DNA of 64,000 nt from NCBI GenBank assembly GCA_964602975.1, contig CAZRTH010000002.1, forward strand, positions 7,668 through 71,667, read 5' to 3'. Source of the DNA: an uncultured Candidatus Saccharibacteria bacterium. Lineage in GTDB: Bacteria > Patescibacteriota > Minisyncoccia > Phycocordibacterales > JBBTRF01. This document shows positions 4,403 through 23,237 of the stretch, piece after piece; within the stretch, counting starts at the first letter, position 1, and each line of letters starts with the position of its first letter. The position numbers were made by a program, and so were the translations under genes. Under the pieces are notes generated by a model. That model was not told where the DNA came from. It saw nothing but the letters and a program-made list of their open reading frames with translations, and ran no database searches.

Positions 4403-4439
4403 GTCACACCGTCGCCATTACCCATTTCTCCCCGAATCA

Positions 4440-6401: not shown

Positions 6402-6485
6402 CCCAAACAGCATTTCTTTAATATTTCTTTATTGTTTCTTGATACTTTCTTTGCGATTTCTTGATCACCTATCTGTTAGAGTATC

Positions 6486-6983
6486 TTGGTGATATCCGAA
6501 AAGGAGTACAACTACGCTTTTGTAGACATGCAAAATATTATTTGCGGTGTCGAAAGGCTTGGTTGGCTCGTTGATTTTGAAAAACTATTTAAATACCTTT
6601 CGTACAAGCACCGTGCCGTGAGAATCTTCCTATTTGTGGGGTATGTGGAAAAATTTTCTCGTTCCTACAGATTCCTGGAGAAAATAGGTTATTTAATTTG
6701 TTACAAGCCAGTAGTTGTTGATAATCTTGGAAGGCCAAAGGCAAATATTGATGCAGATATGGTACTAAAGGCTGTCCTAGAAAAAGAAAATTATACGAAA
6801 GCAATTATTTTGAGTGGCGACGGAGACTTCTATTCGCTAGTGGCATATCTTTTCCAAGAGAACAAGTTGGAAGTTGTGCTTTGCCCGAGCATGCAAGCCT
6901 GTTCGAGTCTACTGAAACGTCACGCGCCTGGGCACATTACAGACATGTCGAGCTGTCGGAATCAAATTTCGTTGGCCACATAA
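6486..6983 (+). CDS. NYN (LabA-like) domain protein, predicted RNase
   Basis: 'YAFVDMQNI...' N-terminus and 'ILSGDGDFYSLV' Asp-rich motif typical of NYN/PIN-like fold; start codon uncertain (TTG at 6486 or ATG at 6528). Confidence 0.6.
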   Translation: MVISEKEYNYAFVDMQNIICGVERLGWLVDFEKLFKYLSYKHRAVRIFLFVGYVEKFSRSYRFLEKIGYLICYKPVVVDNLGRPKANIDADMVLKAVLEKENYTKAIILSGDGDFYSLVAYLFQENKLEVVLCPSMQACSSLLKRHAPGHITDMSSCRNQISLAT

Positions 6984-7107
6984 ATGAAAAAGCACCGCAT
7001 GGACACGCAGTACTCATGAAGGGCTTTTTCCTCGTTTCCGACACTAGTAATGATAACAATCATAGGTACTGGAGTCAACTTTTCTCTGTTCTGTTATACT
7101 TATCTTC

Positions 7108-8541
7108 ATGAACGATCAAGTGAAAACTCCGCGGATCACATTTTATGGTGGGGTGGGGGTAGTGACTGGGGCAAATTTTTTGCTTGAGACGATCGATGCT
7201 GATAGCGGCACAGCGAGTGGAATGTCTGCCGGCAAGCGCATTCTAGTGGACTGCGGCCTTGAGCAGGGTTCGCCTGAGTCGGCGCGGCGCAATCGCAAAG
7301 CCTTTGAATATGATCCGGCCGCGATGGACTATTTGTTCATCACGCACGCGCATCTCGACCACGTCGGCCGCATCGGCAAATTGGTGAAGGACGGTTTCCA
7401 GGGCATCATCTATTCGACACCAGAAACAAAGGCATTGGCCGAGCTCATCATGGACGATGCGGTCGGCTTGTTGGCGCGAGAGGCCCAAAGAGACGGCGTG
7501 TTGCCGCTGTATGAGGCCAAAGAGGTGACCAAGGCACTGAGTCTCTGGAAGACGATCGAATACCATACTCATTTTCAGGTGTGTGCGGGCGTGGAGGTAT
7601 TTCTGCGCGATGCCGGCCACATCCTCGGTTCGGCCATGATCGAATTCAAGATACAAACAACGTCCGGAGAATCCCGCAAAGTGCTTTTCACCGGCGATCT
7701 TGGCAACTCACCAACGCCCTTGCTGAAGGACACTGAGTCGATCGAAAGTTCCGACGCGGACTATCTCATAATGGAGAGTGTATATGGCGATCGAAACCAC
7801 GAGCCGGCACATGAGCGAAAAGAGAAGCTGAGAAGGGTGATCAACGAAACAGTGAAGCGCCGCGGCGTGGTGGTCATTCCTGCTTTTTCGATCGAACGGA
7901 CACAGGTGATCCTATACGAATTGAACAATTTGGTGGATTGCGGACAGATTCCGAGCGTTCCCGTATATGTCGATTCGCCGCTGGCGATAAAAGCCACCGA
8001 TGTATATAAAAGATCGACTCGTTTTTTCAATACGGAAGCCCAGGCCGATGCGAATGAAGGTGATCATCAGCTTTTCAACTTTCCTCGGCTCAAATACGTG
8101 CCGACCAACGAGGGATCTCGCGCGATCGAAAATATGCCAGGTCCGAAGATCATCTTGGCTGGTTCCGGAATGTCCGCTGGAGGACGGGTGATCCATCATG
8201 AATCCGAGTACCTGCCCGATGAAAAGAATACGATCTTGTTGGTCGGCTATCAGAGTATCGGCACGCTGGGCAGGCAATTGCTTGATGGTCACAAGACCGT
8301 GAGGATCAACGATCGCGATGTTCGCGTGAAGGCGCACATCGAAACGATCTATGGATATTCGTCACACAAAGATTCAGATCATCTGGTGGAATTTGTCGAG
8401 GAGGGCGTTGATTCGTTGAAAAAAGTGTTCGTGACGATGGGGGAACCAAAAGCTTCACTGTTTTTGGTACAGAAGCTGCGGGACAATGTTGGAGTGGATG
8501 CGATTATGCCGGAAAGGGCGACTCCGTACGAAATCGTCTAG
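7108..8541 (+). CDS. beta-CASP family MBL-fold ribonuclease (RNase J/CPSF-like)
   Basis: Metallo-beta-lactamase motif 'FITHAHLDHVGRIG', later 'FTGDLGN' and C-terminal His-containing beta-CASP-like motifs; 477 aa. Confidence 0.7.
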   Translation: MNDQVKTPRITFYGGVGVVTGANFLLETIDADSGTASGMSAGKRILVDCGLEQGSPESARRNRKAFEYDPAAMDYLFITHAHLDHVGRIGKLVKDGFQGIIYSTPETKALAELIMDDAVGLLAREAQRDGVLPLYEAKEVTKALSLWKTIEYHTHFQVCAGVEVFLRDAGHILGSAMIEFKIQTTSGESRKVLFTGDLGNSPTPLLKDTESIESSDADYLIMESVYGDRNHEPAHERKEKLRRVINETVKRRGVVVIPAFSIERTQVILYELNNLVDCGQIPSVPVYVDSPLAIKATDVYKRSTRFFNTEAQADANEGDHQLFNFPRLKYVPTNEGSRAIENMPGPKIILAGSGMSAGGRVIHHESEYLPDEKNTILLVGYQSIGTLGRQLLDGHKTVRINDRDVRVKAHIETIYGYSSHKDSDHLVEFVEEGVDSLKKVFVTMGEPKASLFLVQKLRDNVGVDAIMPERATPYEIV

Positions 8542-8543
8542 GC

Positions 8544-8888
8544 TTATTTTACCTTCTCAACCACTCGCTTGAAAGTCTCAGGATGGAATTCGGCGAGATG
8601 CGCCATGATCTTTCGGTCGACTTCGATATTCTGCTTCTTCATCGCGCCGACAAATTTGCTGTATGAAAGGCCCATTGGGTCGAGTGCGGCGTTCATCTTC
8701 ACGATCCACAAGCGTCGCATCACGCCCTTCTTGTCGCGTCGGTGTGCGAAGGCGTATGAGCCGGCATGAGAGATCGCCTCGTACGCCATTCGCTCCTTGG
8801 TGCTTCGGCCAAATCGATAGCCCTTGACCTGCTTGAGGACATTCTTTCGGGTCTTTAGGGCGTTTGTTGCTTTCTTTACGCGTACCAT
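8544..8888 (-). CDS. rplT: 50S ribosomal protein L20
   Basis: 'MVRVKKATNALKTRKNVLKQVKGYRFGRS...RRLWIVKMNAA' aligns to L20 (MARVKRG...KKILK.AKGY...R.LWI.RINAA). Confidence 0.9.
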   Translation of the reverse strand: MVRVKKATNALKTRKNVLKQVKGYRFGRSTKERMAYEAISHAGSYAFAHRRDKKGVMRRLWIVKMNAALDPMGLSYSKFVGAMKKQNIEVDRKIMAHLAEFHPETFKRVVEKVK

Positions 8889-8925
8889 TGGGGTGTTGTT
8901 ATGCTTGTGTGGGTTTTAATAAAAT

Positions 8926-9126
8926 TTAGCGTCCGAGAGCGGCGTTGCCGCCGAGGAAGCGAGCTCGCGACTTGTTGGTCATGATGATCGAACCCATTCG
9001 GTTCTTCTTCATCTGGGAACGTCGTCGCTCCTTGGCATTGAAGTGGTTGTGACCTTTGCCTCGAGCGAGGACTTTGCCCGCTTTGGTGACTTTGAGGCGC
9101 TTGGTGTATGACTTGTTGGGTCGCAT
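8926..9126 (-). CDS. rpmI: 50S ribosomal protein L35
   Basis: 66-aa very basic protein between infC and rplT in the conserved infC-rpmI-rplT order; 'KVTKAGKVLARGKGHNHFNAK' L35-like. Confidence 0.75.
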   Translation of the reverse strand: MRPNKSYTKRLKVTKAGKVLARGKGHNHFNAKERRRSQMKKNRMGSIIMTNKSRARFLGGNAALGR

Positions 9127-9180
9127 GGGATTGATATTAAAATTCGATGTTATGTTTGTTTTTGTGTGTTTGGCGTTTCG

Positions 9181-9726
9181 CTATTTCTTCTCGATGATGA
9201 CAGTGAGGCCTTTCAGAGCCTTCTTCGGCGCTTCGGCGATCGTGTACTCCTCGGTGATCAGCTTGAGGATGCGCTCGAGTCGCTCTTTCAGGAAGTTGAA
9301 TTCCATGTACTTCGAGCGGCCGGTGAGGAAAAGGTCGATCTTGATCCGATGCCCCTCCTTCAGCCATTCCGATGCCTTTTTCGCTTTCAATTCAAGGTCG
9401 TGCTCGCCGGTGCCGATCTTCACTTGGACTGTCTTCACTTCGATGACGTGGGCTTTCGCCTTTGCCGCCTTGAGCTTCTTGTTCTGATCGTACTGAAACT
9501 TTCCGTAGTCCATGATCTTGGCGATCGGCGGGACTGCGCTCGGAGAGATTTCGATGAGATCAAGGCCTGCTGCCTGGGCTTTGTCGAGAGCGTCCTTCAG
9601 GGAAATGACCCCAAAGTTCTCTCCGACAGGCCCGATGACGCGAAGCTCCGCGACTCGAATTTGATGATTTATCCTGTGATTTACGGTGCTCACGATGTAT
9701 GAAGTAACCCAGCATTTATAGCACAA
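9181..9726 (-). CDS. infC: translation initiation factor IF-3
   Basis: 'INHQIRVAELRVIGPVGENFGVISLKDALDKAQAAGLDLIEISPSAVPPIAKIMDYGKF' aligns with E. coli IF3 '[59 protein letters not shown]'; true start probably a non-ATG codon slightly downstream of the ORF-track Met (alignment begins ~15 residues in). Confidence 0.85.
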   Translation of the reverse strand: MCYKCWVTSYIVSTVNHRINHQIRVAELRVIGPVGENFGVISLKDALDKAQAAGLDLIEISPSAVPPIAKIMDYGKFQYDQNKKLKAAKAKAHVIEVKTVQVKIGTGEHDLELKAKKASEWLKEGHRIKIDLFLTGRSKYMEFNFLKERLERILKLITEEYTIAEAPKKALKGLTVIIEKK

Positions 9727-9791
9727 TAGCCCTTTTTACGCAATGTTTTGGCCGACAGGGCGATTTTTGCAGGGCGTATCGCCCAAACTCG

Positions 9792-10751
9792 TTATTTTGT
9801 GGCCGTTTCTAGCCATTTCATTAGGATACCAAAGTCTTTTTCGCGAGCATCGGAGCCGAGGATGATAAATACGACATTCCGGGAGCTGTCTTGGATAGGG
9901 AGGCGGAATAGGGAGATGAGCGTCTCGCCGGCGGCGGAGGTGTAGCCGGTCTTGCCCCCGAGAAAGCGCGGATCGTTCACGAATAAATTGATATTTTGCA
10001 GGTCGCGATAGACCGGACCGTCGGTGGCGGCATAGACAGTGGCAGGCTGGCCGGCCAATCGACCGCCATCGAGCATCACTGTTTTTTGGCGAGTCTTGGT
10101 GACGGTCAAAATATCCGGTTGCAGATCCTTGACGCTTTTCGCTAGCAAAAGCAGGTCGTACGCGGTGGAACGATTTTGGCCCGAAAGTCCGGAGGGGTCG
10201 GCGAAGGCGGTGTGGGTCATGTCGAGCAGGGCAGCTTGGCGATTCATCTGCGAGACGAAGTAGCCGACATTGCCGAGGCCGTCATAGATGCCGGCGATCT
10301 GGTCGGCGGCAACATTGCTCGACTCCATCAGCAGGGGATAGAAGAGTTCTTGTACGGAGGAAGGCGCACCGGCTCGGAGGGCAGTGAGTGCGGTCACCAA
10401 TTTGGTGAGCGAAGCGATTGGCAGCTGGAGGGCGGGCTGACGGCTGACAAGCACTTGGCCGGTATCGACATCAGCGACGAGGAAAGCGGTGGCAGTGATT
10501 TTTTGTGGTCGACCAACTTTCTTGCTGATCAGAATATCAGGTTTGTCGAGCCACTGGAGTTTTGGTTTGGAGGCGGAGTCGATGACAGTGTTTGTGGCAA
10601 CAGTGCGATTGGCGGTGTCCGATGGAGGCGTGAGACGATCGAGGCCGGCTTGTACGACGAGAGAGGCAACAACGATGATACCCGTCCATTTGGCGGTGAA
10701 GAGAATGCCTTCAGTGTCGAGGCGACGAGGACGTGAATAGAGAGGATCCAC
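9792..10751 (-). CDS. D-alanyl-D-alanine carboxypeptidase (PBP5/6, peptidase S11 family)
   Basis: N-terminal TM/signal, 'AFLVADVDTGQVL' and SxxK active site 'IASLTKLVTALTA', later 'SAN' and 'KTG(YT)' like motifs. Confidence 0.75.
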   Translation of the reverse strand: MDPLYSRPRRLDTEGILFTAKWTGIIVVASLVVQAGLDRLTPPSDTANRTVATNTVIDSASKPKLQWLDKPDILISKKVGRPQKITATAFLVADVDTGQVLVSRQPALQLPIASLTKLVTALTALRAGAPSSVQELFYPLLMESSNVAADQIAGIYDGLGNVGYFVSQMNRQAALLDMTHTAFADPSGLSGQNRSTAYDLLLLAKSVKDLQPDILTVTKTRQKTVMLDGGRLAGQPATVYAATDGPVYRDLQNINLFVNDPRFLGGKTGYTSAAGETLISLFRLPIQDSSRNVVFIILGSDAREKDFGILMKWLETATK

Positions 10752-10857
10752 GGGATAATGATAGCATGGGGTAAAGGCATGTCTTGCTACCGAGGAAAGT
10801 CATTCTGGGATACAATAAGAGGTATTACGCCACGTATTTAGTTTATTTTTCTCCGCT

Positions 10858-12003
10858 ATGAAACACGAGAGTGAAGCGACAGCATCTGGAGGTCAAGGAG
10901 AGGCGATAGTTAAAGACGCAGATCTCCCTGAATCGGAATTCGAGCTGGGTTTTGAAGAGATCGCTCGGTCAAAGACAAAAGTGACTGAGGGGAGAAACAA
11001 GGTGCCTGCTGGGGAAGTTTTCCTTGTTAGGCCATGGGAGGACTACACCCTCGTTGCTTTGAAAGATAAGCCCTCTCTGGCCATATATGACGAGCACGGA
11101 GCCATGATCGAGAATTTCAAGGAAAACGGGCTTCTGCATAAAGGTGATACCAACTGGGCTAGCCTTATAAGAAGTTGTGGAGGAGGATCATATCTTCTGG
11201 ATAGTCTTGGAGCGCAGGGTTCACGAGACACATTAGCTTTTGATCAACTGGAGACTTTCCTGAAATGGCCTCTGCGTGAATACAACATTCGATTCAGTAC
11301 AAGTCTTTCGGACATACAGAGGGCCCTCGGTAGTGACCAATCTGTTGAAAAAGGATGGAAGTATCAGTCATTTGATAACGGGAAATATCTCCTCTGTATT
11401 GATCCGGAAACTAAAATCTTCTTCGGATACATAACAGAAAATGACAGAGGCATTCGGCTTGCTCCGAAAGACTGGAAGAAAATAGACTTCACCGCCAAGA
11501 GTAATACGTTACCTAAGGATTTTGTAGCGCATATCGAAAAAACGCTACAGCAAACCGATGACTTCAAAGAACTTAACGCGAAGTATGGCGCGATCATTAC
11601 CGATATTGGCATCAATATCATCGATAGTGCAAATCCTTCTGGCGCCCCCGTCTTTAAAGACCTCGTCCCATCTGTTGCTTCAAATATCACAGTCGACCCG
11701 AGCAACCCTGATACGGTGTATTACTGCCAGAGCGGCAATCCAAGGGAGATCACTCGGCTCGATATGACTGGCGATCCGACCAAGTGGCAGACGCGGTCGG
11801 CGGCTATTCCGAAGCAATACGGTGCGATCAAAAACCTCCAACTTGACCCAACCGGCTCATATTTCCTTCTCTATACTCAAACCGCGCTGGTGATGCTTGC
11901 AAAAGAGACACTCGAGGAAATCAAAGAAGTTCCCGGTCTCAAAGAGGCCAATTTTGACTCCCAAGGCCGCGTCCGAGCCGTGGCAAGGACGGTTATTTGG
12001 TGA
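10858..12003 (+). CDS. hypothetical protein, first gene of MoxR-vWA-TGase/Ubl block
   Basis: 381-aa ORF, stop overlaps the TTG/GTG start of next gene; no recognisable domain. Confidence 0.45.
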   Translation: MKHESEATASGGQGEAIVKDADLPESEFELGFEEIARSKTKVTEGRNKVPAGEVFLVRPWEDYTLVALKDKPSLAIYDEHGAMIENFKENGLLHKGDTNWASLIRSCGGGSYLLDSLGAQGSRDTLAFDQLETFLKWPLREYNIRFSTSLSDIQRALGSDQSVEKGWKYQSFDNGKYLLCIDPETKIFFGYITENDRGIRLAPKDWKKIDFTAKSNTLPKDFVAHIEKTLQQTDDFKELNAKYGAIITDIGINIIDSANPSGAPVFKDLVPSVASNITVDPSNPDTVYYCQSGNPREITRLDMTGDPTKWQTRSAAIPKQYGAIKNLQLDPTGSYFLLYTQTALVMLAKETLEEIKEVPGLKEANFDSQGRVRAVARTVIW

Positions 12004-14732
12004 CATATGCCGTAGACACAAGCGGCTTGGCTCAAGTGATGGAGAGAAAGAGGATTGCACGCCTAACACAAGGAGTAAATGCAACGGACCTTTTCAGGAT
12101 CGATGATCTGAAAAAGAAGGGAGGAAAAACTGCGGTTGAAAAAGAGAAGGATCTCATTCCGGTAAAAGAAAAAATGGAGCGCGATGTTGCGCCTGCTTTG
12201 GAATCTCTGGATACGCTCGAGCACGCGGCGAATTTCAGAAAGCAGCTGGAAGAATTGCGCCGACAGCTCCGTCAGCAGGGTCTCGCCAACGATGAAGTCG
12301 TTTTTGTAACAGAAGGGATCGAGGCTTCAGTCAAAGAGAAAGAGAAGCAATTTGTCTCAAAAGAAACGGTGCCGATGCTTGAGTCAATTGAAAAAGGCTT
12401 GGCAGCTGGGTTGTCTCTATCGACCGCTGTCATCCTTCGAGCGGATCTGGATCGGCTGAAGGCCACCGAGCTGTTAATGGACGACACTGTCCGAGGTAGG
12501 TACCATGCGTTGGTCAATACATTCAACTTGGCATATCAGGAATTATTCCAGCGAGAGGGAAGCAAGATCATCGAAGAGGTTCAGGGCTTGCTGAAAGGGA
12601 TACGAACACAGCTGGATGCGATCACCAACAAAAATGGTTTTGATGATTGGATGGAGTTTCGACTACCACAATATAAGAGCCGGCTTGGAGAGATGCTTCG
12701 CGACTGTCCGATCACAGCGGACGATGCATACAGGGCGATATCCGGAGCTCGTACTGAGTTGCAGACCATTGCGGCTGAATATCAGAAAAAGTTTGAGGAA
12801 GAATACGCGAAGGTTCGGGAGAAAGCTGCGGGACGAGTAGATGCGGTCGTTGTCGATCTGGAGGGGGATATTGCTGCTATTGTCAAAAGGCTTCAAGACA
12901 AAAATTTCAAGGATCGAGCTGCCGCCGAACAGTATCTTTCAAGTAGCGAAGCGAGGAGGGTTTTGGAGAGTGAGATTCAAGCTCTCGCTTCAGATCAGCC
13001 CGATATTGCCGAGGAGCTCAAGCGAGCACTCAGAGTCCAGATCTCAAATAGCCTGTCGGCCATTGAACGTGGCGCGCAACTCAATATCGCAGAGACCGGT
13101 CAGCAGATGGTACTTTTTGGCAAGACCACTTTCCCTAAGTGGGAGGCAAAGGTGAAGGAGAAGAGGAAGAGGGCTGTGAGCCTCACCTTCGAGACCGATG
13201 AGAGAAGCCATGGTCCCGGAGTGAAGCCTGATCAGATCCAAGGTGACGTCGTGTTTGCGGTGACAGACCAGAAAGGAGAAAAGAACAAGGTCGGTCCATA
13301 TGAAGGGTGGACAGATGAGCATGAGTGGCGCCTCGGTCTTCATGCTCTACGAGGTCAGAGCACCCCGCCTTCATATATGACCGCGGAGGAGTTTCGAAAT
13401 GTGAAAAAACAATACAGCGCTTGGGAAAGCGGAACGCTCAAGAAGGAGTATGAGACTCGACGCCAAGAGCTTGCTACTATCTACGCCACTCGCGAGAAGG
13501 TGGGAAAGCGTAGTGCTGATAAAGAAACCCTTTGGAAGACAATGTATCAAGCAAAGCTGAGGGACCATGCTGAGTTTCTTGCCAAGAATCACATCAGTCT
13601 GTTTCGGCGCGCGGATGCCGTAAGAGAGAGTGACGAGGTGGATACGAACGGCAAGGGATTCGTGCCAAGCTGGCAAAGCCACTGGGTTGTCGATCCTGAT
13701 ACGGAATATAACCTCGAACGAATGGCAGAAACATTCAAGATGCAGCTCGACCTGAGGGAAGGTGTACTCAATCTCGATGGTCATGCCGGTACAGGAAAGG
13801 ACGTTCTCATGAAAATGTTCAGTAATCGAACAAATCGACCATACTTCAGCACCGATTGTACGAAGTGGACCACCGAGTACGAACTTTCTGAAGACGTTGT
13901 GCTTGAGGCAAAGGACGGAGCAACCCAGACGATCAAGGTACCGAGCGCTGTTTTGAACGGCATCCAGACCCCAGGAGCGCTGGTGTATTTCAATGAGGTG
14001 AACGGCATGCCTGAGCAAGCGCAGATCTTCCTGCATGCCCTATGGGACGAAAAGCGATCTTTGACCCTCAAGACCAGCTCTGGAAAGGTGGTGAAGGCTC
14101 ATCCGACCGTACTTTTTGCAAGCTCAAAGAACCCTGGGTATCCTGGTACCTTCGACCCACAGTTTGCGACCAAGAGTCGTATGGTATCGATGGAGATCGG
14201 CTATCCTTCACTGCACACTATCGCCAAGCCGGAGGACAAGAATCCAAACAAGCCATTTAATTCATCCGAGGCTCTGCGTATCGCCCGCGAAGTCAGTTCG
14301 TTGTCAGACATGACCTTTGAACCGAACATGGACAGGAACGAATTTGTACAAATGTGGGATAGCCACGTGAATGGCATCAAAAATGGTGCTCCAAAGCCAA
14401 GCGCTGTCCAGGAGTTCGATATCAAGACCATTCTCGCGTTAGTACAGTTTGGCACCAAGCTTCGCGAAAACTTCAAATTGAACTTTGAGAAGAGCCGAGA
14501 TGCTCGCAACGCTCTCCCTGTCCATCAGCCACTGACCTCTCGCGAGTTGCGCAGGGCTGCATATGGACTCTCCAAGACTCCTGTTGATGAAAAGATCAAG
14601 GGCAATCCCGATACCACAGCTCGTGAGCTTCTGGAGCGTTTCTTCCTGAGCCACATCGATAAGACCGAGGATCGCGAGAAGATCAAAACGGCGATGGCGA
14701 CCTGGCGTTCTCAAAAGAGGGTAGCCGCTTAA
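11997..14732 (+). CDS. MoxR/AAA_5-family AAA+ ATPase with long N-terminal coiled-coil region
   Basis: C-terminal half: 'LNLDGHAGTGKDVLMK' (Walker A-like, Lys present but Asp in place of Thr/Ser), 'ALVYFNEVNGMPEQAQIFLHALWDEKRSLTL' (matches MoxR 'DEINRA.P..Q.ALL.A..E'), 'TVLFASSKNP' (ATQNP-like), 'FDPQFATKSRM', 'IGYPS'; N-terminal ~550 aa charged/coiled; start is TTG at 11997 or GTG at 12000 overlapping upstream stop. Confidence 0.6.
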   Translation: MVTYAVDTSGLAQVMERKRIARLTQGVNATDLFRIDDLKKKGGKTAVEKEKDLIPVKEKMERDVAPALESLDTLEHAANFRKQLEELRRQLRQQGLANDEVVFVTEGIEASVKEKEKQFVSKETVPMLESIEKGLAAGLSLSTAVILRADLDRLKATELLMDDTVRGRYHALVNTFNLAYQELFQREGSKIIEEVQGLLKGIRTQLDAITNKNGFDDWMEFRLPQYKSRLGEMLRDCPITADDAYRAISGARTELQTIAAEYQKKFEEEYAKVREKAAGRVDAVVVDLEGDIAAIVKRLQDKNFKDRAAAEQYLSSSEARRVLESEIQALASDQPDIAEELKRALRVQISNSLSAIERGAQLNIAETGQQMVLFGKTTFPKWEAKVKEKRKRAVSLTFETDERSHGPGVKPDQIQGDVVFAVTDQKGEKNKVGPYEGWTDEHEWRLGLHALRGQSTPPSYMTAEEFRNVKKQYSAWESGTLKKEYETRRQELATIYATREKVGKRSADKETLWKTMYQAKLRDHAEFLAKNHISLFRRADAVRESDEVDTNGKGFVPSWQSHWVVDPDTEYNLERMAETFKMQLDLREGVLNLDGHAGTGKDVLMKMFSNRTNRPYFSTDCTKWTTEYELSEDVVLEAKDGATQTIKVPSAVLNGIQTPGALVYFNEVNGMPEQAQIFLHALWDEKRSLTLKTSSGKVVKAHPTVLFASSKNPGYPGTFDPQFATKSRMVSMEIGYPSLHTIAKPEDKNPNKPFNSSEALRIAREVSSLSDMTFEPNMDRNEFVQMWDSHVNGIKNGAPKPSAVQEFDIKTILALVQFGTKLRENFKLNFEKSRDARNALPVHQPLTSRELRRAAYGLSKTPVDEKIKGNPDTTARELLERFFLSHIDKTEDREKIKTAMATWRSQKRVAA

Positions 14733-14741
14733 CACCTGTCT

Positions 14742-17700
14742 ATGAAATCACCGGAGGATCATTCTGAAAGCGTCCCGAGATCGAACAAGAAACATGTTCG
14801 AGAAATGGTCTTTCTCGCCGAACAGGCAAAGGAAGGCGCATTGAAAGTGCTACCAGGAAAGGCTTGGGCACAGCATTTTCCTGTTCCTGCCGAAGAACGC
14901 AGAGAGATCCTTCAGGGAGTTCTCGATGGAAAAGTGAAGCCGCAAGACGCAGAATCAAAGGTCACTCCAGACGCCTTGGTCTATGACGCCGCTGATCTCG
15001 ACAGGGAGGGTTTGGATGGAGTGAGCTCACGAATCTTTGATGAATCGGCGACGGTACAGTACTACGACTACCCGAGATTTACCAAGTTTGTCTCGGAGAT
15101 GAAGGGTACGAAGATCTCTGTCGGGGATTGCGAAAAGCTCTACGGAGCGATCACAAAAGCGAGGACTCAGAAAAAGCTCAGAGATGCTTTTGGAACTACA
15201 GGGCAAGGGCAGCTTGATGGTGTGTTGGTACGTGACGCGAAGGCGATCGTCAGGACCATCGATACCCTTCCTCCGACAGAAAAAGTCTTGCAAGCTCTCA
15301 AGTTGGATTGGCTCTGTAGAGATAGGGGAGCGATCGGGACGCTTGAGCGAGATGAGGTAGTGTCGAAACTTTCCGGTAGCGAAAGAGAGTTATTCAAGAA
15401 GCTCTCCACCGGGTACCGTCAGTACGTCGATCAGGGAGATGAGGCAGGGTACAAGGAATTGTTGGAAGGTATACGTGACAATCACTCTCTTGTTGAAGAG
15501 AAGAAAGAGGCATCTGATGCTCCGAGTGACAGCATGCAGAAGCTTGAGGAAGAGATCGAAGAGTACAAGAAGGATACCGGAAATCCCGGCACTCCAAACG
15601 ACCCAGCTATCCCTCCCGAAGACGCGGACGAGTATCATACGCCGGAAGGAGGGTCACCGGAACAGCCAGAACAAAGCGGTCCTTCCCAAGAGCAACAGGA
15701 ACAAAGACCGATTTTTGAGATCGAGCCACCTCTCGGCGGCTATTATGCTGGTGGGCGAAAAAGCTACTATGATCGCACGAGAAAGACTTGGAGCAAGAAG
15801 AAGCAGTTGAGCGAGTACGCCGGAGTACTTTCAGCATCAGGACGTCACACGCTTTCTGGCAAGACCGACAGAGGAGTGAAATCACTCGCTATTCCGAATA
15901 GTTATGCGTTGGACGCGGTATCTGTGAAATACACCGGCTCCAAACCGAGACTGCACCGTGACCAGAATGGCTGTTTCTATATCGAGACAGATGGACCGTC
16001 GACTTTCTCGGTTGAATTTGCCAAGGAAGACAAGCTGTTCACCGGACCAGTGGTGGCAGAGGATACAGAAAAACTGTACGCAGGAGCCCTTTCCACTGAA
16101 AGTGAAACTTTGTTGCAGGCATTGCAAGGTAATGCAATGAATAAGGCAGAACAGGTGCGTCAGCATATTCTAGCGAATCACTTTTATCCCGGCGGCGGAG
16201 ACTTGGGTGCGGCTCAGGCTGTCCAAGCGAAGCTCCGCCATGAATCAACTCCGGATGCTTATATTCAAAATATCGATAAGGCAGAATATCTGGAATGTTA
16301 CTCCTCGAACACTCTTTTTGTGGCGATGATCCGACAGGCTGGCATACCGGCTCGTCTCGTGATTGGTCACAAGGTAGAGGGTGCTCGCGATGGAAAATCA
16401 GCCATAACAGAGTCTACCGGACATGCATGGTCTGAAGTCTGGGACGGTGGCAAGTGGGTGAGATTTGACGCAACGCCCGCTCCGAAGCCAGAGGACAAGA
16501 AAAAAGACAATAAAGAAAAGGAGGATGATGCGGAAAAGGAAAGCGCTCCTGAGGCGAAAGACAATGGAAAGGAGGCTCCGCAGAAGGAGCAGGAAAAAGG
16601 AGGGACTCCGTCTGATGAGGAAAATGGCGAGTCGAAAGAGCAGGGGGAAGCTAGTGATTCTGATGTCCAGGAAGGCGAAAATAGTGTCCAACAATCAAAA
16701 GAAAAGCTCGAAAAGGACGCCGCTGAAAAAGAAAAGCTCGAAAAGAAACTCGAAAGCGAGAATTCATTCGAAGATCTAGAAAAAATAAAAGAGGAAATAC
16801 AACAGGCCGACCTTTTGGATGATATGCAGAAGGAGCTTGATGAAAAAGTCGAAGCAAAAGAAGAGCAAATGAAGGAATCCATCAAGGATGAACTTGATAA
16901 GATGGTGAAGGACGGTTTCTTGGATGAGGAAAAGAGAAACGAGCTGGAACAGAAGCTTCTTGAGGAAGATGCTGCTGAATTGGATCGTTTGAGAGAGCAG
17001 CTTGAACAGGAAAACTCACTCTACAACGAATATGAGAATATCCGTGATGAAGTGATGCCGCTGGTGGATAAGTGGTTTGAATTTTTTGTAGAGCGCTTGC
17101 CTCGAGAGCAGAATGTCGATGTGGATGAGGATTCTTTGACCCGCCAGGGCGTGTTCAATCGAAGGTCGGTGAACAAGGCGCGAAATTTGTTGTTTGGATC
17201 GATCAAGAATCCCCGTATCATCAAGTCATCTGTAAAGCCATTGTTCATGAGCTCGATCCTTGTCGATGTGAGCGGTTCGATGGCGGGAGAGAAGCTGCAG
17301 AATGCCCGGAAGCTCCTAGTCTTCTATTCTGAATTGTTCACAAAGATCAGCGAAGAATTCGGCTACATCCGATTTTCCATAAATACATTCTCTGATAGAG
17401 TGAACGAGATCAAAGCTTTCGATCAGGATTATTCCGCGACCCAGAGTTACCTTTTCCCTGACAATTCACGCTCGACGGTGAAATTCCGTCTCATGAACAA
17501 TGTTACCGCGCTAGGCGGCACGAACATGCTTGATTCAGTGAAGAAGGCGGCAGCTGATCTTAATCGAGAGACGCACGATTTTCCTGATTATGCATCGGCA
17601 TTCTATTTTGTTGGCGATGGAGAGGATACCTGTGGCAATTCTGGCAATGTGAGTAGCTTTTTGCAGACAAATGATGCCGAGAGGGGATTTGGCGATCACA

Positions 17701-17867
17701 TGAGATCAGCGATCATGCTGGGAACCGAGAGCCAGAAGGCGATTTTGGCGAATATTTTTGGTGAGGAGCATACTACCGTAGCTCCAGATCTCGATTCTCT
17801 GATCGAGGAGAGTATGCTTCGTTTCAACGATGATATTGAAGCGTATATGAACATGAAGACGGGGTAG
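14742..17867 (+). CDS. transglutaminase-like cysteine protease domain + acidic low-complexity/coiled-coil linker + C-terminal von Willebrand factor A (vWA) domain
   Basis: TGase core 'AEYLECYSSNTLFVAMIRQAGIPARLVIGH' (Cys ~16296-16298), 'GHAWSEVW...GKWVRFDATP' (His, Asp); vWA MIDAS 'ILVDVSGSMAG' (~17265), 'ALGGTNM', 'FYFVGDGEDT'; ~170 aa of Lys/Glu/Asp-rich low complexity between. Confidence 0.7.
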   Translation: MKSPEDHSESVPRSNKKHVREMVFLAEQAKEGALKVLPGKAWAQHFPVPAEERREILQGVLDGKVKPQDAESKVTPDALVYDAADLDREGLDGVSSRIFDESATVQYYDYPRFTKFVSEMKGTKISVGDCEKLYGAITKARTQKKLRDAFGTTGQGQLDGVLVRDAKAIVRTIDTLPPTEKVLQALKLDWLCRDRGAIGTLERDEVVSKLSGSERELFKKLSTGYRQYVDQGDEAGYKELLEGIRDNHSLVEEKKEASDAPSDSMQKLEEEIEEYKKDTGNPGTPNDPAIPPEDADEYHTPEGGSPEQPEQSGPSQEQQEQRPIFEIEPPLGGYYAGGRKSYYDRTRKTWSKKKQLSEYAGVLSASGRHTLSGKTDRGVKSLAIPNSYALDAVSVKYTGSKPRLHRDQNGCFYIETDGPSTFSVEFAKEDKLFTGPVVAEDTEKLYAGALSTESETLLQALQGNAMNKAEQVRQHILANHFYPGGGDLGAAQAVQAKLRHESTPDAYIQNIDKAEYLECYSSNTLFVAMIRQAGIPARLVIGHKVEGARDGKSAITESTGHAWSEVWDGGKWVRFDATPAPKPEDKKKDNKEKEDDAEKESAPEAKDNGKEAPQKEQEKGGTPSDEENGESKEQGEASDSDVQEGENSVQQSKEKLEKDAAEKEKLEKKLESENSFEDLEKIKEEIQQADLLDDMQKELDEKVEAKEEQMKESIKDELDKMVKDGFLDEEKRNELEQKLLEEDAAELDRLREQLEQENSLYNEYENIRDEVMPLVDKWFEFFVERLPREQNVDVDEDSLTRQGVFNRRSVNKARNLLFGSIKNPRIIKSSVKPLFMSSILVDVSGSMAGEKLQNARKLLVFYSELFTKISEEFGYIRFSINTFSDRVNEIKAFDQDYSATQSYLFPDNSRSTVKFRLMNNVTALGGTNMLDSVKKAAADLNRETHDFPDYASAFYFVGDGEDTCGNSGNVSSFLQTNDAERGFGDHMRSAIMLGTESQKAILANIFGEEHTTVAPDLDSLIEESMLRFNDDIEAYMNMKTG

Positions 17868-17995
17868 AAGTGTACTTTTCGCCGCGCCTCCAAAATCTTG
17901 ACTTATGGCCATATAATATGGTAATAAGTGTTGGTAGAACGGTGCATGTGCATCGGTCAATTTGAACCTTAACAATCAAACGGAGGAATTATCGT

Positions 17996-19489
17996 ATGTT
18001 CGCTATTCTCACGCGGATCCGGAGCTGGTTTGAGCGTTTGCTCGGCCAAGACCTCGAGCCGCTGAAAGAAGGTTTTCTTTCGTGCGACTCAGCTCAGAAA
18101 CAGGGGTTGGTGATGACGAAGTTCGAGCTCGAGGTAAGGCCTCGCCGTATCATGGGTGTTCTGCCTGTGTTCGGAGTTCGAAAAGTCGGTTCGGTCTCAT
18201 TTTTCGACGCGGTCAAAGCCCCCATTCGGTCTTCTCTCGCTTCGTTGAGTCATGAGTTGCGCCAAGTCCCTCGACGTGTCCATGATGCGGCCGAAAAAGG
18301 CCTCAAAATTGGAACCGAAAAAGCTGTTGATCAGGCAAAGGCAAAATTGAATGTCGAAACACAAAAGCTCCTTCAGAAATTTGACGAATCGCACCTTTCC
18401 GGGCTCATCAAGTCCGACAGGAATGTCTTTCGTCAAAAGCTTCTCGAGGCCCTCAGTGATCAGGCATCGCAAGTATTTGCCACTGCCACAAAGAAGCATC
18501 TGGCCGAACTCGTCCTGCGCATCCGACAAGAAACATCAGTTTCCGATTCATCGAGTGTCTCCGATGACAATGTCGCTTCATTGCCACTGCCGACCGGCAC
18601 ACGTTTCGTGTTCAGGAAAGGCAAGATGACCACGTTTGTCATCGAGCAACCGCCTCAAAAGCGCACGCTGAAAATCATGAATGAAGGTGGCGATAGATCG
18701 GAGATGGTTCAGTTGGCGCTGCCTTACGTCGTGTTCTTCATCGTCCTGCGCGGTCGCAGATCCGACAAGGCATACGTGCTCTTTCGGAAAGCTCCGCTGC
18801 GAAGCGTGAGAGACGAATTACTCTGCCCAGCTCTTCCCAACATCTTCGGAGACTTCAGCGTTTGTTTTGCTCCATCGGCAGCTAGGGACACCCTGGCAGA
18901 GATGGCGGAAGAATCGATCGCTAGCTTCTGGGGCGGCAGGTTTATCAAAACCGAAGTCGTCACCGAGGCTCACAGGAGGACCCCTATCGAAGATTGGGCT
19001 GAAGGGTCGAGAAAAGACTCCTTGTTTGGCATATCACATCCGTGGATGTCGGCCAAACAGAGTGTTGCAAGCATGATGGAGAAGATCAGCGCTGAATTCG
19101 TTGCTGATACCATTGCTGGCCAGAAAAAAGAAAAAGGCGGCAAGGAGATCGCTTCCGCGCTCGATGCGGCTGTCACCGCGCTTGCGACTAAGATCGAGAA
19201 CGAAATGAAAGAGACCTGCTTCAAGCTCGTTCCTTCATGGAACCTCGATCCGACGGTCCTTGCTCAAACAAGTGCAGGGTTCAAGCAGTCTGTCGCTGAG
19301 GTATGCACTGTAATTAAGGCGCAGCTTGGCGAAAAGATCGAAGGAACCTTGTCGAATGAGGCCTTGGAAGGAGCTCTTGAAGCAGCAATCCAACAAACGA
19401 TCGCCTCGATGAATGCGGACATGGACAAGCCGATGGCGGCCGCTCGCGAAGCGTTCTCCGCGATTCTTAAAGAAAAGGAGGCAAAATGA
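17996..19489 (+). CDS. candidate E2/UBC-like ubiquitin-conjugating-enzyme homolog (hypothetical)
   Basis: Motif 'LLCPALPNIFGDFSVCFAP' (Cys codon 18863-18865) resembles UBC active-site 'HPNI...G.IC(L)' spacing; preceded by predicted beta-strand stretch; gene stop overlaps JAB gene start (ATGA); RBS GGAGG upstream. Confidence 0.4.
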   Translation: MFAILTRIRSWFERLLGQDLEPLKEGFLSCDSAQKQGLVMTKFELEVRPRRIMGVLPVFGVRKVGSVSFFDAVKAPIRSSLASLSHELRQVPRRVHDAAEKGLKIGTEKAVDQAKAKLNVETQKLLQKFDESHLSGLIKSDRNVFRQKLLEALSDQASQVFATATKKHLAELVLRIRQETSVSDSSSVSDDNVASLPLPTGTRFVFRKGKMTTFVIEQPPQKRTLKIMNEGGDRSEMVQLALPYVVFFIVLRGRRSDKAYVLFRKAPLRSVRDELLCPALPNIFGDFSVCFAPSAARDTLAEMAEESIASFWGGRFIKTEVVTEAHRRTPIEDWAEGSRKDSLFGISHPWMSAKQSVASMMEKISAEFVADTIAGQKKEKGGKEIASALDAAVTALATKIENEMKETCFKLVPSWNLDPTVLAQTSAGFKQSVAEVCTVIKAQLGEKIEGTLSNEALEGALEAAIQQTIASMNADMDKPMAAAREAFSAILKEKEAK

Positions 19490-20166
19490 CCCCGATTCAT
19501 CTCAAAAAGACAGACGGTGCGAAGCAGTCTCCTGAGACGACCCATTACATTGCGGCCAGAAATGGTCTCTTCCTTCAAAAGAAGATGTGGTGGGTGGATG
19601 CTACGGTGCCTGTGGCTGAGGCGAGCAAGCTCAGGGTCCAACACCCTTCAGCGAGATTGCTTCTGCCTAAGCTTCCCGTAGAGATCTTGGCCCAAGCTCT
19701 GAAACTTGCGAAAGCAGTATACGACGTTTCCAAAAGCGAAGTATGTCTGCTCTTGCACTATGATGAGAAAACGGGCTATCAACTCACCGTTCCAGTGCAA
19801 CTAGTCACGCCCTTAAGCGTCGACTACAACGCTTCACAACGGGTGCCAGGAGCGCTCTGTGTAGGAACTATCCACTCGCACGGTAAGCTGCACGCGTTTC
19901 ATTCCGCCACCGACCATGCTGATGAAGAGACTGCAGATGGCGTCCATGTAACCCTCGGGAGCTTGGATGTGTATCCGCGATTCTCTTTGTCGGCAGAGAT
20001 GGCGATCAACGGGACGAGATTCCCCGTTGAGACTCAGTGGTTCGAAGGACTGGTTCTCGAACAAGAACGCATCTATCGTATCGATTGGCCGGCCATTGAT
20101 TCGTGGGAGGTTCCGCGGAAATGGCTCGATGTCGTCGAGCACAGGAAAGGAACACCATGGCCATAA
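19486..20166 (+). CDS. JAB/MPN (JAMM) metallopeptidase, deubiquitinase-like
   Basis: Canonical JAMM motif 'E...HSHGKLHAFHSATD' (HxH-x7-S-xx-D) with upstream Glu ('KSEVCLL'). Confidence 0.7.
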   Translation: MTPIHLKKTDGAKQSPETTHYIAARNGLFLQKKMWWVDATVPVAEASKLRVQHPSARLLLPKLPVEILAQALKLAKAVYDVSKSEVCLLLHYDEKTGYQLTVPVQLVTPLSVDYNASQRVPGALCVGTIHSHGKLHAFHSATDHADEETADGVHVTLGSLDVYPRFSLSAEMAINGTRFPVETQWFEGLVLEQERIYRIDWPAIDSWEVPRKWLDVVEHRKGTPWP

Positions 20167-20867
20167 AAGTGATCGGTCTCGGCGGTATCGGTAGTCAGTT
20201 GATATCGCCTCTGTGCCGCTACCTTGATTCGCAGAAGGACGGCAGCATTCAGATCGTCGTCATCGACGGCGACGCATACGAAGCCAGAAATGCCGACCGC
20301 CAGGAATTCTTGGATGTCGGCAATAAGGCTGAAATTACGGCTGCTCGGATGAGGCGGGATTTACCCGGTCTTCTCATCGAGGCGAAGCCTGAATACGTGA
20401 CGGAGGAGAACGTGTTCTTCATGATCAACAACGGCGATATCGTGTTCCTGGGGGTAGACAACCATGCTACTCGGAAACTCGTGTCCGACCGCTGTCGAGA
20501 ATTGGAGGACGTGGCGCTCATCTCCGGCGGGAATGAGCTGATCGACGGCAACGTCCAGATCTATCTCCGCATTGGTGGCAAGGAACTATCGGCCCCGATC
20601 ACGTATCTCCACCCGGAGATCGAACATCCGCGAGATCGGAATCCCGCGGAAATGAGTTGCGAAGAGCTCGCTTCGAGTGGAGTTCCACAGCTGATCTTTA
20701 CCAACTTGACCGCGGCCGTCCTTATGCTCTCAGCATTTCGAATGGTTGGCGCGGTCTTGGCAGGAAAGGGAAAGTTGATATACTCGGAGCAGTTCTTCGA
20801 TGTAGAAACCGGTAACGTCCTGACCTTCTTGCGCAAGCCAGAAGGTCATCACAGAAAGGCAACATGA
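20157..20867 (+). CDS. E1-like (ThiF/MoeB/ubiquitin-activating) adenylyltransferase
   Basis: Rossmann 'VIGLGGIGSQL' and 'VVIDGDAYEARNADRQ' (ThiF 'D.D.V..SNLNRQ' motif); ATG at 20157 with AAAGGA RBS, overlaps JAB gene end by 10 nt. Confidence 0.7.
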   Translation: MAIKVIGLGGIGSQLISPLCRYLDSQKDGSIQIVVIDGDAYEARNADRQEFLDVGNKAEITAARMRRDLPGLLIEAKPEYVTEENVFFMINNGDIVFLGVDNHATRKLVSDRCRELEDVALISGGNELIDGNVQIYLRIGGKELSAPITYLHPEIEHPRDRNPAEMSCEELASSGVPQLIFTNLTAAVLMLSAFRMVGAVLAGKGKLIYSEQFFDVETGNVLTFLRKPEGHHRKAT

Positions 20868-21139
20868 CAGAAACGACGACAACACCCGATGGCAGCGCGC
20901 AGCCTCCAGTGCTGGACGCGCCCAGTGTGCAGATCCAGTGTGGCGCCAACAGCCAGAGCATCACGCTCGGCGATGGCGAAGTCCTGACAGTGGGGAATGT
21001 GCGCGAGCGCCTCGGCGACGTGCTCAACCTCGCCCCCACTATGCTCGCCGTTATCGGTGACGAAACAGTGGACGACGACCGCGCCCTCCGGCCCGGAGAA
21101 ACGCTCCAGTTCATCAAGCAGTCCGGGACGAAGGGCTAA
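20864..21139 (+). CDS. ubiquitin-like beta-grasp protein (ThiS/MoaD-like), C-terminal Gly
   Basis: 91 aa; 'VQIQCGANSQSITLGDGEVLTVGNVRERLGDVL...MLAVIGDETVDDDRALRPGETLQFIKQSGTKG*' matches ThiS/MoaD pattern ending in Gly; start overlaps E1 stop (ATGA). Confidence 0.5.
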   Translation: MTETTTTPDGSAQPPVLDAPSVQIQCGANSQSITLGDGEVLTVGNVRERLGDVLNLAPTMLAVIGDETVDDDRALRPGETLQFIKQSGTKG

Positions 21140-21191
21140 CTTATCGGCCACCGCACTCGGCTTCCGTGATGCTGATTCGAAAACGCAACTC

Positions 21192-21221
21192 GGCCTCCTT
21201 TCGGGGAGGTCGGGTTTTTTG
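21192..21221 (+). terminator. rho-independent terminator after Ubl gene
   Basis: 'GGCCTCC-TTTC-GGGGAGGTC' hairpin followed by 'GGGTTTTTTGTTTGGG'. Confidence 0.5.
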
Positions 21222-22208: not shown

Positions 22209-22221
22209 TTTTCTTTTGTTG

Positions 22222-22613
22222 TGGAGATGGGAGGAATTGAACCCCCGTGCAGAAGAGTCTAGTGAATGGGTCTACGAAGGGTAGGGCGCTTCTATGTCTG
22301 CGGGGCAGACAATTCGCGCGAGCCGTTATGAAACGACCGAAAAGCGGCTCGCGCTATTCCCATGATTTCGAATCGGCGGCGGGACTCCGCTGATCCCATT
22401 CCACAAATATAGCGTCAGGACCGAACGGTGTGGAAACCATCCGGCTGGCGTCGCTTAGGCTTTCGCGTAAGCGAATGCAAGGTCAGCCGCACCGAAGTAC
22501 GGAGACTTTACAGATCCAAGTTTTGCACTTAGAATTTCCAGCCTTTTTAAGAGTTACTGGAGCTCTCCTTCGCACATTCAAGAGATATTCTTCCGTCGAT
22601 GCCTGGCATCCCC
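22222..22613 (-). ncRNA. ssrA: tmRNA (SsrA, transfer-messenger RNA)
   Basis: Minus-strand 5' end 'GGGGATGCCAGGCATCGACGG' mirrors E. coli 'GGGGCUGAUUCUGGAUUCGACGGG'; 3' end '...GGGGGTTCAATTCCTCCCATCTCCA' is a T-arm plus acceptor strand complementary to the 5' GGGGATG; adjacent to smpB; 'UAAAAAGGCUGG...AAGU-GCA' context resembles E. coli resume-codon context; CCA not encoded. Confidence 0.7.
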
Positions 22614-22639
22614 GTATGAAAATCCTGCGTGCTCGATTG

Positions 22640-23095
22640 TCAACGATCTCGATACTCGCGAGCGACGTCGCGCGCGGCCTGCTTTTTCTTCATGGATTCG
22701 CGCTTGTCATGCTTCTTTTTGCCTTTCACGACTGCGATCTCTACTTTCAACTTCCGACCCTTATTATACACCGAAACAGGCACTATTGTCAAACCTTGTT
22801 TCGCCTCAATATTGGCCAATTCCTGAAGCTCTTTTTTGCTCAACAGGAGCTTGCGAATGCGGGCCTGGTCAAAATCTTTCGGGGCATTGAGGGGTTGGAA
22901 AGGGGGAATCTCGGTGTTCATGAGAAATGCTTCGCCGCCACGGATGGTGACGTAGCCGCCTTCGAGCTTGCCGAGCTTGGCCCGGACGGATTTCACCTCG
23001 GTGCCGAGCAACTCAATGCCTGCCTCGTATTTCTCGAGGATCTCGTAGTCGAGACCGATCTTTTTGTGCTGCAACAGCGCCATGGGTATCATCAT
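22640..23095 (-). CDS. smpB: SsrA-binding protein SmpB
   Basis: 'YEAGIELLGTEVKSVRAKLGKLEGGYVTIRGGEAFLMN...KLLLSKKELQEL...KGKKKHDKR' aligns with SmpB (FEAGLALQGWEVKSLRAG...DGEAFL...KLLLNQREL...KGKKQHDKR). Confidence 0.85.
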   Translation of the reverse strand: MMIPMALLQHKKIGLDYEILEKYEAGIELLGTEVKSVRAKLGKLEGGYVTIRGGEAFLMNTEIPPFQPLNAPKDFDQARIRKLLLSKKELQELANIEAKQGLTIVPVSVYNKGRKLKVEIAVVKGKKKHDKRESMKKKQAARDVAREYRDR

Positions 23096-23237
23096 AGCAT
23101 GGGGTATGACGGAGAAAAGGAGAGTTGCCAGAACGCTTTACTTTATACCCGAATTATGGTATTTATATAGTCGGCCTCGTAATAGAAAAACTACATAACC
23201 AAACATAGACAACAAGGAAAAAGAGAAAGGGAAATGC

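Follow-up and report, generated by a model that had tools for sequence, protein, structure and literature searches.

Does a protein that joins a transglutaminase (TGase)-like enzyme to a von Willebrand factor A (vWA) domain serve the ubiquitin-like (Ubl) genes beside it, or does it work with another partner? The question is raised by a 64,000-nucleotide stretch of DNA, hereafter the window, from an uncultured Candidatus Saccharibacteria bacterium (contig CAZRTH010000002.1). Here, the gene for a 1041 amino acid (aa) TGase-vWA protein follows that for a MoxR-class AAA+ ATPase. Downstream are genes for a 497 aa protein (p497), a Prok-JAB protein, a ThiF-type E1 and a 91 aa beta-grasp-like product. 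The original prediction, made from the letters of the sequence, assigned the TGase-like enzyme a possible E3-like or deconjugating role in the Ubl machinery. We find that the TGase-vWA protein is strictly paired with the AAA+ protein and that the pair is independent of the Ubl genes. It is probably the vWA adaptor of a remodelling machine.

A TGase-like core and a vWA domain in one polypeptide

The TGase-vWA gene is a single open reading frame (ORF); coordinates of all features are in Table 1. Pfam assigns residues 518-577 to Transglut_core (PF01841) with an E value of 5e-13 and a score of 49.6 bits, against a cut-off of 23. The same profile matches 28 of 28 aligned members of the TGase-vWA family. 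The residues of the triad are found in three motifs: Cys519 (codon TGT) in ECYSSNT, His561 in GHAWSEVW and Asp576 in RFDAT. A profile alignment to TgpA covers the last two of these. The 28-sequence alignment was used to build an AlphaFold2 model, which has a mean predicted local distance difference test score (pLDDT) of 79.4. When the whole model was compared with the PDB, using Foldseek, the top match was the periplasmic domain of Pseudomonas aeruginosa TgpA (6g49, E=2.7e-8). This alignment spans 292 columns and has a TM-score of 0.57, normalised to the target.

Conservation of the triad was assessed in the 28-sequence alignment and in 22 divergent orthologues. The latter are full-length representatives, an Abawacabacteria protein among them, with 27-46% identity. 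Cys519, His561 and Asp576 are invariant in all 50 orthologues, down to 27% identity. By its profile match and motifs, the TGase-vWA protein is predicted to belong to the TGase-like superfamily, the defining features of which it carries. A single 1041 aa protein with a complete triad had been proposed originally; both the domain search and the orthologues bear this out.

The original prediction also placed a vWA domain with an intact MIDAS (an adhesion site that depends on a metal ion) at the C-terminus, and this too holds. For residues 839-962 of the window protein the Pfam scores are below the gathering cut-offs (18.5 bits for VWA_2, cut-off 27; 17 bits for VWA, cut-off 23.8). VWA_2 is detected at E<0.01 in 23 of the 28 orthologues, some of which have precomputed PF13519 matches. 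In the AlphaFold2 model, residues 834-1040 adopt a vWA fold. Foldseek matches include NorD (9qhe_G and 9qh6_G), the MIDAS domain of Rea1/MDN1 (6qtb and 8ql1) and the I domains of integrins and of the anthrax receptor. The E values for NorD, Rea1/MDN1 and the integrin I domains range from 2e-6 to 1e-5. MIDAS residues D842, S844, S846, T927 and D959 are invariant in the 28-sequence alignment. They are kept in the 22 divergent orthologues, save that T927 is replaced by Ser in three. A conserved insertion, residues 893-912 (positions 17418-17477), forms short beta bridges directly before the loop of the MIDAS Thr in the model. It is possibly a vWA 'finger'.

Searches of Pfam, NCBIfam, PDB sequences and PADLOC returned nothing beyond the TGase, vWA and CbbQ/NorQ families. 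In a hydropathy scan, the maximum Kyte-Doolittle mean over 19 aa was 1.26, and the scan detected no hydrophobic segment typical of a transmembrane helix or signal peptide in the TGase-vWA protein or its AAA+ partner.

Family-specific N-terminal domain and a linker in three parts

The TGase-like core is preceded by a mostly helical N-terminal domain, which closes with a conserved acidic motif, PPEDxDEYHTP (positions 15612-15644). When residues 1-300 were compared with 1.84 billion representative proteins, only 47 matches were obtained. All of those with at least 950 aa measure 988-1147 aa and have both triad and MIDAS; the shorter ones look like fragments. The N-terminal domain is confined to the TGase-vWA family. 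No HExxH motif was found on reading residues 1-300, and a faint match to Anthrax-tox_M (E=0.16) was dismissed. A Pro/Glu/Gln stretch, residues 302-320, is disordered in the AlphaFold2 model. It is followed by a beta-sandwich that contains a conserved RDQNGCFY motif.

The original prediction connected the TGase-like core to the vWA domain by one low-complexity tether of ~170 aa, likened to intrinsically disordered tethers. The linker instead comprises ~250 aa in three parts, the first two of them strongly acidic. The first, residues 581-638, varies from 28 to 121 aa across orthologues. The second is a helical stalk of fixed length (148-154 aa in 23 of 23 sequences compared), 35% of which is Asp or Glu; its net charge is -27. 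Residues M721, G725 and F726 of the stalk are invariant in the 28-sequence alignment. The third part, residues 786-833, is an extended, highly conserved segment for which the model gives no structure, with invariant positions L786, P787, D795, G803, R814, N815, L816, G819, N823, P824 and R825. Thus, the description as a disordered tether fits the first ~58 aa of the linker but neither the helical stalk nor the conserved segment that follows.

An AAA+ gene is the constant partner

A gene for an AAA_5 protein of ~1290 aa lies directly 5' of the TGase-vWA gene in 40 of 40 related loci with enough upstream flank. These loci are 33 of the 38 loci from species in GTDB and those that we label L001, L003, L043 and L047-L049, with near-duplicates of some; all except the GTDB loci came from an exact protein look-up. 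All-against-all clustering of the flanking ORFs, across 40 loci, produced only two conserved families: the AAA+ and TGase-vWA proteins. The next-largest cluster was present in 4 of 40 loci, and no third conserved gene was found by this approach.

In orthologues, the partner has an N-terminal beta-propeller, a helical region of ~570 aa and a CbbQ/NorQ-type AAA+ module. In the window, these parts are divided between ORFs of 381 and 911 codons. The model of the 381 aa fragment (AlphaFold2 pLDDT 81; predicted template modelling score 0.75) has WD40, G-beta, WIPI and YVTN propellers as its top Foldseek matches (E~1e-6). Residues 591-775 of the 911 aa fragment match CbbQ (5c3c, 3e-9; 6l1q) and NorQ (9qh4/9qhd, 7e-7) in a phmmer search of the PDB. 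The similarity runs from Walker A, through the helix-2 insert region, to sensor 1, and AAA_5 is detected in full-length orthologues. The MoxR-class partner of the original prediction is therefore present, as a CbbQ/NorQ-type gene directly upstream.

The sensor-1 Asn and several Arg residues of the AAA+ module are invariant. Walker B reads YFNE across the family; Asn replaces the usual, Mg-binding, Asp, and everything else in the ATPase site is invariant. With Asn-Glu in place of Asp-Glu, ATP hydrolysis may be slow or regulated. Column identity is lowest in the propeller (0.28-0.44) and highest in the AAA+ core (~0.8). On sequence features, the two proteins largely qualify as a CbbQ/NorQ-type MoxR/vWA couple; the Walker B Asp is missing, and the vWA finger is a candidate.

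The division of the AAA+ gene results from a 1-nt deletion, relative to orthologues, followed by a TGA stop codon. Alignment with the closest orthologue places the deletion at ~11983-11990. The L043 orthologue (1289 aa) aligns with one reading frame up to residue 375 and with the other from residue 377. Where the window reads ...RVRAV / KDGYLVTY, the homologue has ...RIRAVDKAGFLVTY at the same place. Among ~78 homologues, this genome alone has a split gene. The TTG start codon of the downstream ORF overlaps the stop codon of the 381 aa ORF, and the NCBI annotation lists a separate 910 aa product for the downstream part. Assembly error, recent pseudogenisation and a viable gene in two parts are all possible accounts of the split.

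The pair is restricted to Patescibacteria

A search of 5.8 billion protein clusters identified 144 relatives, as clusters at 90% identity. Among the best 120 of these, nearly all are full length (~1040 aa) with 47-62% identity. Those matches listed with an informative lineage name are all from Patescibacteria (Paceibacterota, Taylor-, Magasanik-, Levy- and Kerfeldbacteria). In an exact-pattern scan, which sets a lower bound, the family was found in 38 of 185,579 GTDB species. A search of IMG/VR viral contigs yielded no relatives. PADLOC matched no system and gave only a weak TerY-like vWA match.

Identity to the window protein is ~54-62% for named Parcubacteria-type lineages and ~51% for loci from Levy-, Davies- and Roizmanbacteria. 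It is 42-48% for Peregrinibacteria and Peribacteria, and ~37% for Abawacabacteria. We take this ordering to follow, roughly, the taxonomy of the candidate phyla radiation (CPR).

The genes that flank the pair differ between lineages and mostly have housekeeping functions (tRNA synthetases, ribosomal proteins, ftsA/ftsZ). In two Levybacteria species the pair is located between ftsA and ftsZ (L001, positions 4773-14292; L021). In another Patescibacteria lineage (L048, positions 4069-14389) it is just upstream of S21-YqeY-ftsA-ftsZ. A general cell wall and division neighbourhood was considered, with MraY, FtsW, MurG, FtsA, FtsZ, Mur ligase, amidase, PBP5 and YkuD as queries. This was rejected; matches were limited to Levybacteria and one further lineage.

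A proposed remodelling machine with an enzyme head

We consider it probable, though well short of certain, that the TGase-vWA protein is the vWA adaptor of a two-gene, cytoplasmic, Patescibacteria-restricted remodelling machine of the MoxR-type AAA+/vWA class, with a Cys-His-Asp enzyme as its head. Such a capture-and-modify machine is proposed because the order of parts is the same as in NorD, with the Cys-His-Asp enzyme as N-terminal payload. From analogy with NorQ/NorD, CbbQ/CbbO and Rea1 we infer how a ring could form, how docking and force transmission could occur, and which client and chemistry might be involved. The AAA+ module would form a hexameric ring, onto which the vWA domain would dock. 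The metal ion of the MIDAS would capture a client protein through one of its acidic residues. The helical stalk, with its fixed length, and the flexible acidic linker would then transmit ATP turnover. The head, consisting of the TgpA-like beta-sandwich and the TGase-fold enzyme, could cleave the captured client, deamidate it or join it through Gln-Lys cross-links. Six propellers would probably aid client recruitment. As a matter of speculation, the segment at residues 786-833 and the insertion at residues 893-912 are candidate ring-docking elements. The DEY of the acidic motif is, equally speculatively, a candidate internal ligand for the MIDAS.

Three observations weigh against this proposal. 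First, the partner lacks the canonical Walker B sequence, hhhhDE, throughout the family. Second, the AAA+ gene is frameshifted in the window; either the machine may not work fully here or the assembly may contain an error. Third, the apparent rarity of the family appears to suit an accessory rather than a core function.

The pair could alternatively be a MoxR-vWA conflict or defence system. Upon an invader or host signal, sensed by the variable propeller, the AAA+/vWA pair would then unleash the TGase-like domain as a peptidase effector. MoxR-vWA proteins with peptidase effectors and beta-propellers have been described as conflict systems (PMC7159879; PMC13622651). Consistent with this, the family is rare-looking and patchy over CPR lineages, and, within the partner, conservation is lowest in the propeller. 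The window pair also occupies a variable region, beside a rare Ubl cassette and a tmRNA gene. However, the architecture is single and fixed with no swapped effectors, full-length identity is 42-62% across named CPR lineages, and the neighbours are mostly housekeeping genes. Furthermore, clustering over 40 loci gave no third conserved component, and neither the PADLOC result nor the viral contigs favour a defence function. We regard this explanation as unlikely.

A more ambitious form of the machine proposal is unlikely in our view. Here, the pair would be an ancient, Patescibacteria-specific and ATP-driven machine for protein modification or cross-linking, a split single-AAA analogue of Midasin with its own transglutaminase, that acts on a core structure. 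Cell division is one candidate target, given the location of the pair: ftsA and ftsZ flank it in Levybacteria, and in another lineage it is just upstream of ftsA-ftsZ.

Self-processing, in which the TGase-like domain would cleave its own linker or the AAA+ partner to release or activate the vWA module, is less probable still. The TGase fold resembles that of papain, and protease activity is predicted for many of its bacterial members. Disordered linkers at residues 302-320 and 581-638 adjoin conserved motifs (PPEDxDEYHTP and residues 786-833, respectively) that might be cleavage or docking sites. Conversely, TgpA, the closest solved relative, has transamidase activity, and the linker sequence is variable, which is unexpected for a conserved cleavage site.

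The adjacent Ubl cassette is an independent module

The four genes downstream of the pair, in order p497, Prok-JAB, ThiF and the 91 aa ORF, are on the same strand as the TGase-vWA gene and physically adjoin it; the adjacency to JAB and ThiF genes noted originally is real. The 91 aa ORF is conserved, with an invariant C-terminus, FxKQSG[T/S]KG, and gives a faint TGS (beta-grasp) signal. The p497 family has 17 members, and all those with a lineage name are from Patescibacteria.

Two further arguments could connect the TGase-like domain to these genes as an E3-like transamidase or deconjugating isopeptidase. Enzymes with a TGase fold can ligate ubiquitin, as reported for MavC of Legionella, and one class of MoxR-vWA conflict systems contains a full Ubl system (PMC7159879). 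That class has MoxR, vWA, propeller, JAB, E1 and FtsH components, all of which are encoded within 15 kb here, and was considered as a candidate. It was ruled out: FtsH in the window, 6 kb away, is a canonical membrane protease (FtsH_ext, AAA, M41), the linkage is not conserved, and the window lacks the RING E3, Ubl-E2 fusion and double-AAA FtsH-like protein of the published class. Searches of Pfam, NCBIfam and PADLOC with the TGase-vWA protein detected no homology to E2, E3 or deubiquitinase families.

The wider distribution separates the two modules. Using tblastn, homologues of E1, JAB and p497 were found within 10 kb in 0 of 42 related loci, which takes in the loci of the 38 GTDB species. 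Gene tables with Pfam labels, made for nine orthologue loci (L001-L004, L043, L044 and L047-L049), the closest orthologue included, show none either. Conversely, the complete four-gene cassette (497 aa, JAB, ThiF and ~90 aa ORF) is found in L045, in L046 and on a JGI contig with no AAA+/TGase-vWA pair nearby. The L045 locus shares the gene order of the window: Beta-CASP, L20, S11 peptidase, cassette and GNAT. There, no gene separates the S11 peptidase gene from the cassette, and the pair is missing from exactly that spot. In the window, a 128-nt spacer (positions 17868-17995), with its own GGAGG ribosome-binding site, separates pair and cassette. Because the cassette occurs without the pair, and the pair loci without the cassette, the two are independent modules, and their adjacency is specific to this genome. 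Since the linkage is not conserved, the Ubl role in the original prediction is largely refuted and we consider it most improbable.

The cassette itself could be an undescribed minimal Ubl system in which the 497 aa protein takes an E2/E3 role; an E2-like function for p497 is a guess from gene order.

Several other observations concern this region. The spacer contains TTGACT and TATAAT boxes, too close together for a standard sigma-70 promoter. The G+C fraction is 0.493 for the AAA+/TGase-vWA pair and 0.53-0.54 for the cassette and flanks. An ORF at positions 22430-23170 overlaps the tmRNA gene, at the end of the region, and is probably spurious. A variable island is suggested by what lies beyond the L045 cassette: AAA_15/AAA_21 genes together with a serine recombinase.

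Table 1. Positions of the pair, the Ubl cassette and nearby features in the window.
Feature	Position	Strand	Basis or remark
AAA+ partner, N-terminal fragment, beta-propeller, 381 aa	10858..12003	+	Fused in frame in ~78 orthologues
Frameshift site: 1-nt deletion relative to orthologues, then TGA stop	11980..12003	+	Alignment with L043 orthologue
AAA+ partner, C-terminal fragment, helical region and AAA+ module, 911 aa	11997..14732	+	phmmer against PDB
Walker A, GHAGTGKD	13779..13802	+	GHxGTGKD invariant in 32 sequences
Walker B region, VYFNEV	13983..14000	+	N and E invariant family-wide
TGase-vWA protein, 1041 aa (feature studied)	14742..17867	+	ORF; ATG start
Family-specific N-terminal domain, mostly helical, residues 17-300	14790..15641	+	AlphaFold2 pLDDT ~80-90; without Pfam match
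Beta-sandwich ahead of TGase core, residues 325-430	15714..16031	+	AlphaFold2 strands with pLDDT ~90; Foldseek match to TgpA 6g49
TGase-like core, residues 450-580	16089..16481	+	PF01841; TgpA matches; triad invariant
Triad codons	Cys519 16296-16298; His561 16422-16424; Asp576 16467-16469	+	Motif reading
Variable acidic disordered linker, residues 581-638	16482..16655	+	pLDDT <50 in places; D+E 34%
Acidic helical stalk, residues 639-785	16656..17096	+	Long helices, pLDDT ~80-90
Conserved extended segment before vWA, residues 786-833 (48 aa)	17097..17240	+	pLDDT <50
vWA domain, complete MIDAS	17241..17864	+	Foldseek matches; MIDAS residues invariant
MIDAS sites	DVSGS (842-846) 17265-17279; T927 17520-17522; D959 17616-17618	+	Motif reading
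p497, 497 aa	17996-19489	+	Without Pfam or PDB match
Prok-JAB/DUF2016 protein	19486-20166	+	Domain match
ThiF-type E1	20103-20867	+	Domain match
91 aa beta-grasp-like ORF	20864-21139	+	Start overlaps E1 stop
Strong terminator-like hairpin closing cassette	21187-21216	+	After 91 aa ORF
tmRNA gene, end of region	22219-22613	-	Rfam, 93.8 bits
tRNA-Ile, anticodon TAT	26700-26775	+	ARAGORN

Comparison with known systems

MoxR-type AAA+/vWA pairs are widespread, and few of their clients are known: Rubisco, NO reductase, fumarate reductase and pre-60S ribosomal particles. A literature search found no paper that describes the AAA+/TGase-vWA pair. Its architecture is fixed, unusually elaborate and strongly conserved, and occupies ~7 kb in bacteria with genomes of ~1 Mb. 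The pair is thus a defined target for studying how an AAA+ ring could be coupled to covalent protein modification, and the role of such a machine in episymbiotic CPR bacteria. The link to prokaryotic ubiquitin-like signalling, tempting but unsupported, is removed by our analysis, which also isolates a rare, self-contained, four-gene Ubl cassette in Patescibacteria.

Four other groups, namely ternary conflict systems, Midasin, TgpA-type triads and Ubl systems, have defining features that the pair lacks. The ternary MoxR-vWA conflict systems (PMC7159879) resemble it in their MoxR and vWA core, peptidase effectors and beta-propellers, and one class has JAB, E1 and Ubl. However, ternary systems need a third component (VMAP, iSTAND, a double-AAA FtsH-like protein or a TPR/propeller protein), whereas only two families are found here. 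They also have highly variable effectors and are enriched in multicellular bacteria; neither applies to the pair. Midasin/Rea1, a eukaryotic AAA+ protein of ribosome assembly, follows the same logic of AAA+ ring, long helical linker, unstructured stretch rich in acidic residues and C-terminal MIDAS domain. Yet Midasin is one chain with six AAA modules and no TGase, whereas the pair has a single AAA_5 module on a separate polypeptide.

The original prediction supposed that vWA partners of MoxR normally lack a protease domain. This is only partly true; vWA-peptidase fusions, in conflict systems, and MoxR-DUF58-transglutaminase triads are documented (PMC7159879, PMC8430577, PMC13622651). The triads include PA2875-PA2874-tgpA, aaa-atp/duf58/tgm of the Bifidobacterium PFNA cluster and Schaalia Esr (PMC3507681, PMC8430577, PMC13622651), and transglutaminase activity has been measured for TgpA (PMC3507681). 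Like the pair, they combine a MoxR-class ATPase, a vWA-like protein and a TGase-like enzyme, and TgpA is the best structural match to the beta-sandwich and TGase core. In P. aeruginosa, we take PA2875 to be the MoxR protein and PA2874 the DUF58 protein. Unlike the pair, the triads consist of three separate genes, with a membrane TGase that has an extracytoplasmic catalytic domain, and a DUF58 vWA-like protein. Here, the TGase is fused N-terminally to a canonical MIDAS vWA domain, has no hydrophobic segment, and is accompanied by an AAA_5 (CbbQ/NorQ-like) ATPase.

NorQ/NorD and CbbQ/CbbO, whose ATPases form the CbbQ/GvpN/NorQ subgroup of MoxR AAA+ proteins, resemble the pair in several respects. 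The AAA+ module is closest to theirs in sequence and the vWA domain structurally matches NorD. In both cases the genes are adjacent and the vWA protein has an N-terminal domain, a long linker and a C-terminal MIDAS vWA domain. The lack of a hydrophobic segment in the hydropathy scan of the pair is as expected for cytoplasmic proteins. In NorD, the linker between N-terminal and MIDAS vWA domains is long and essential (PMC13036017). In NorQD, the NorQ hexamer carries the vWA domain, a finger of which enters the pore, and the client's acidic residues are the proposed ligands of the MIDAS (PMC13036017; PMC9976466). ATP-driven rotation stretches the linker, in a proposed working stroke (PMC13036017; PMC9976466). 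Unlike the known couples, the pair has no metalloenzyme or Rubisco client nearby. NorQ and CbbQ are ~270 aa in length, whereas the AAA+ subunit here has ~1290 aa, with a propeller and ~570 aa of helices. Walker B is Asn-Glu rather than Asp-Glu. Finally, where NorD has a non-enzymatic N-domain, the vWA partner described here has a predicted catalytic head with a TGase fold.

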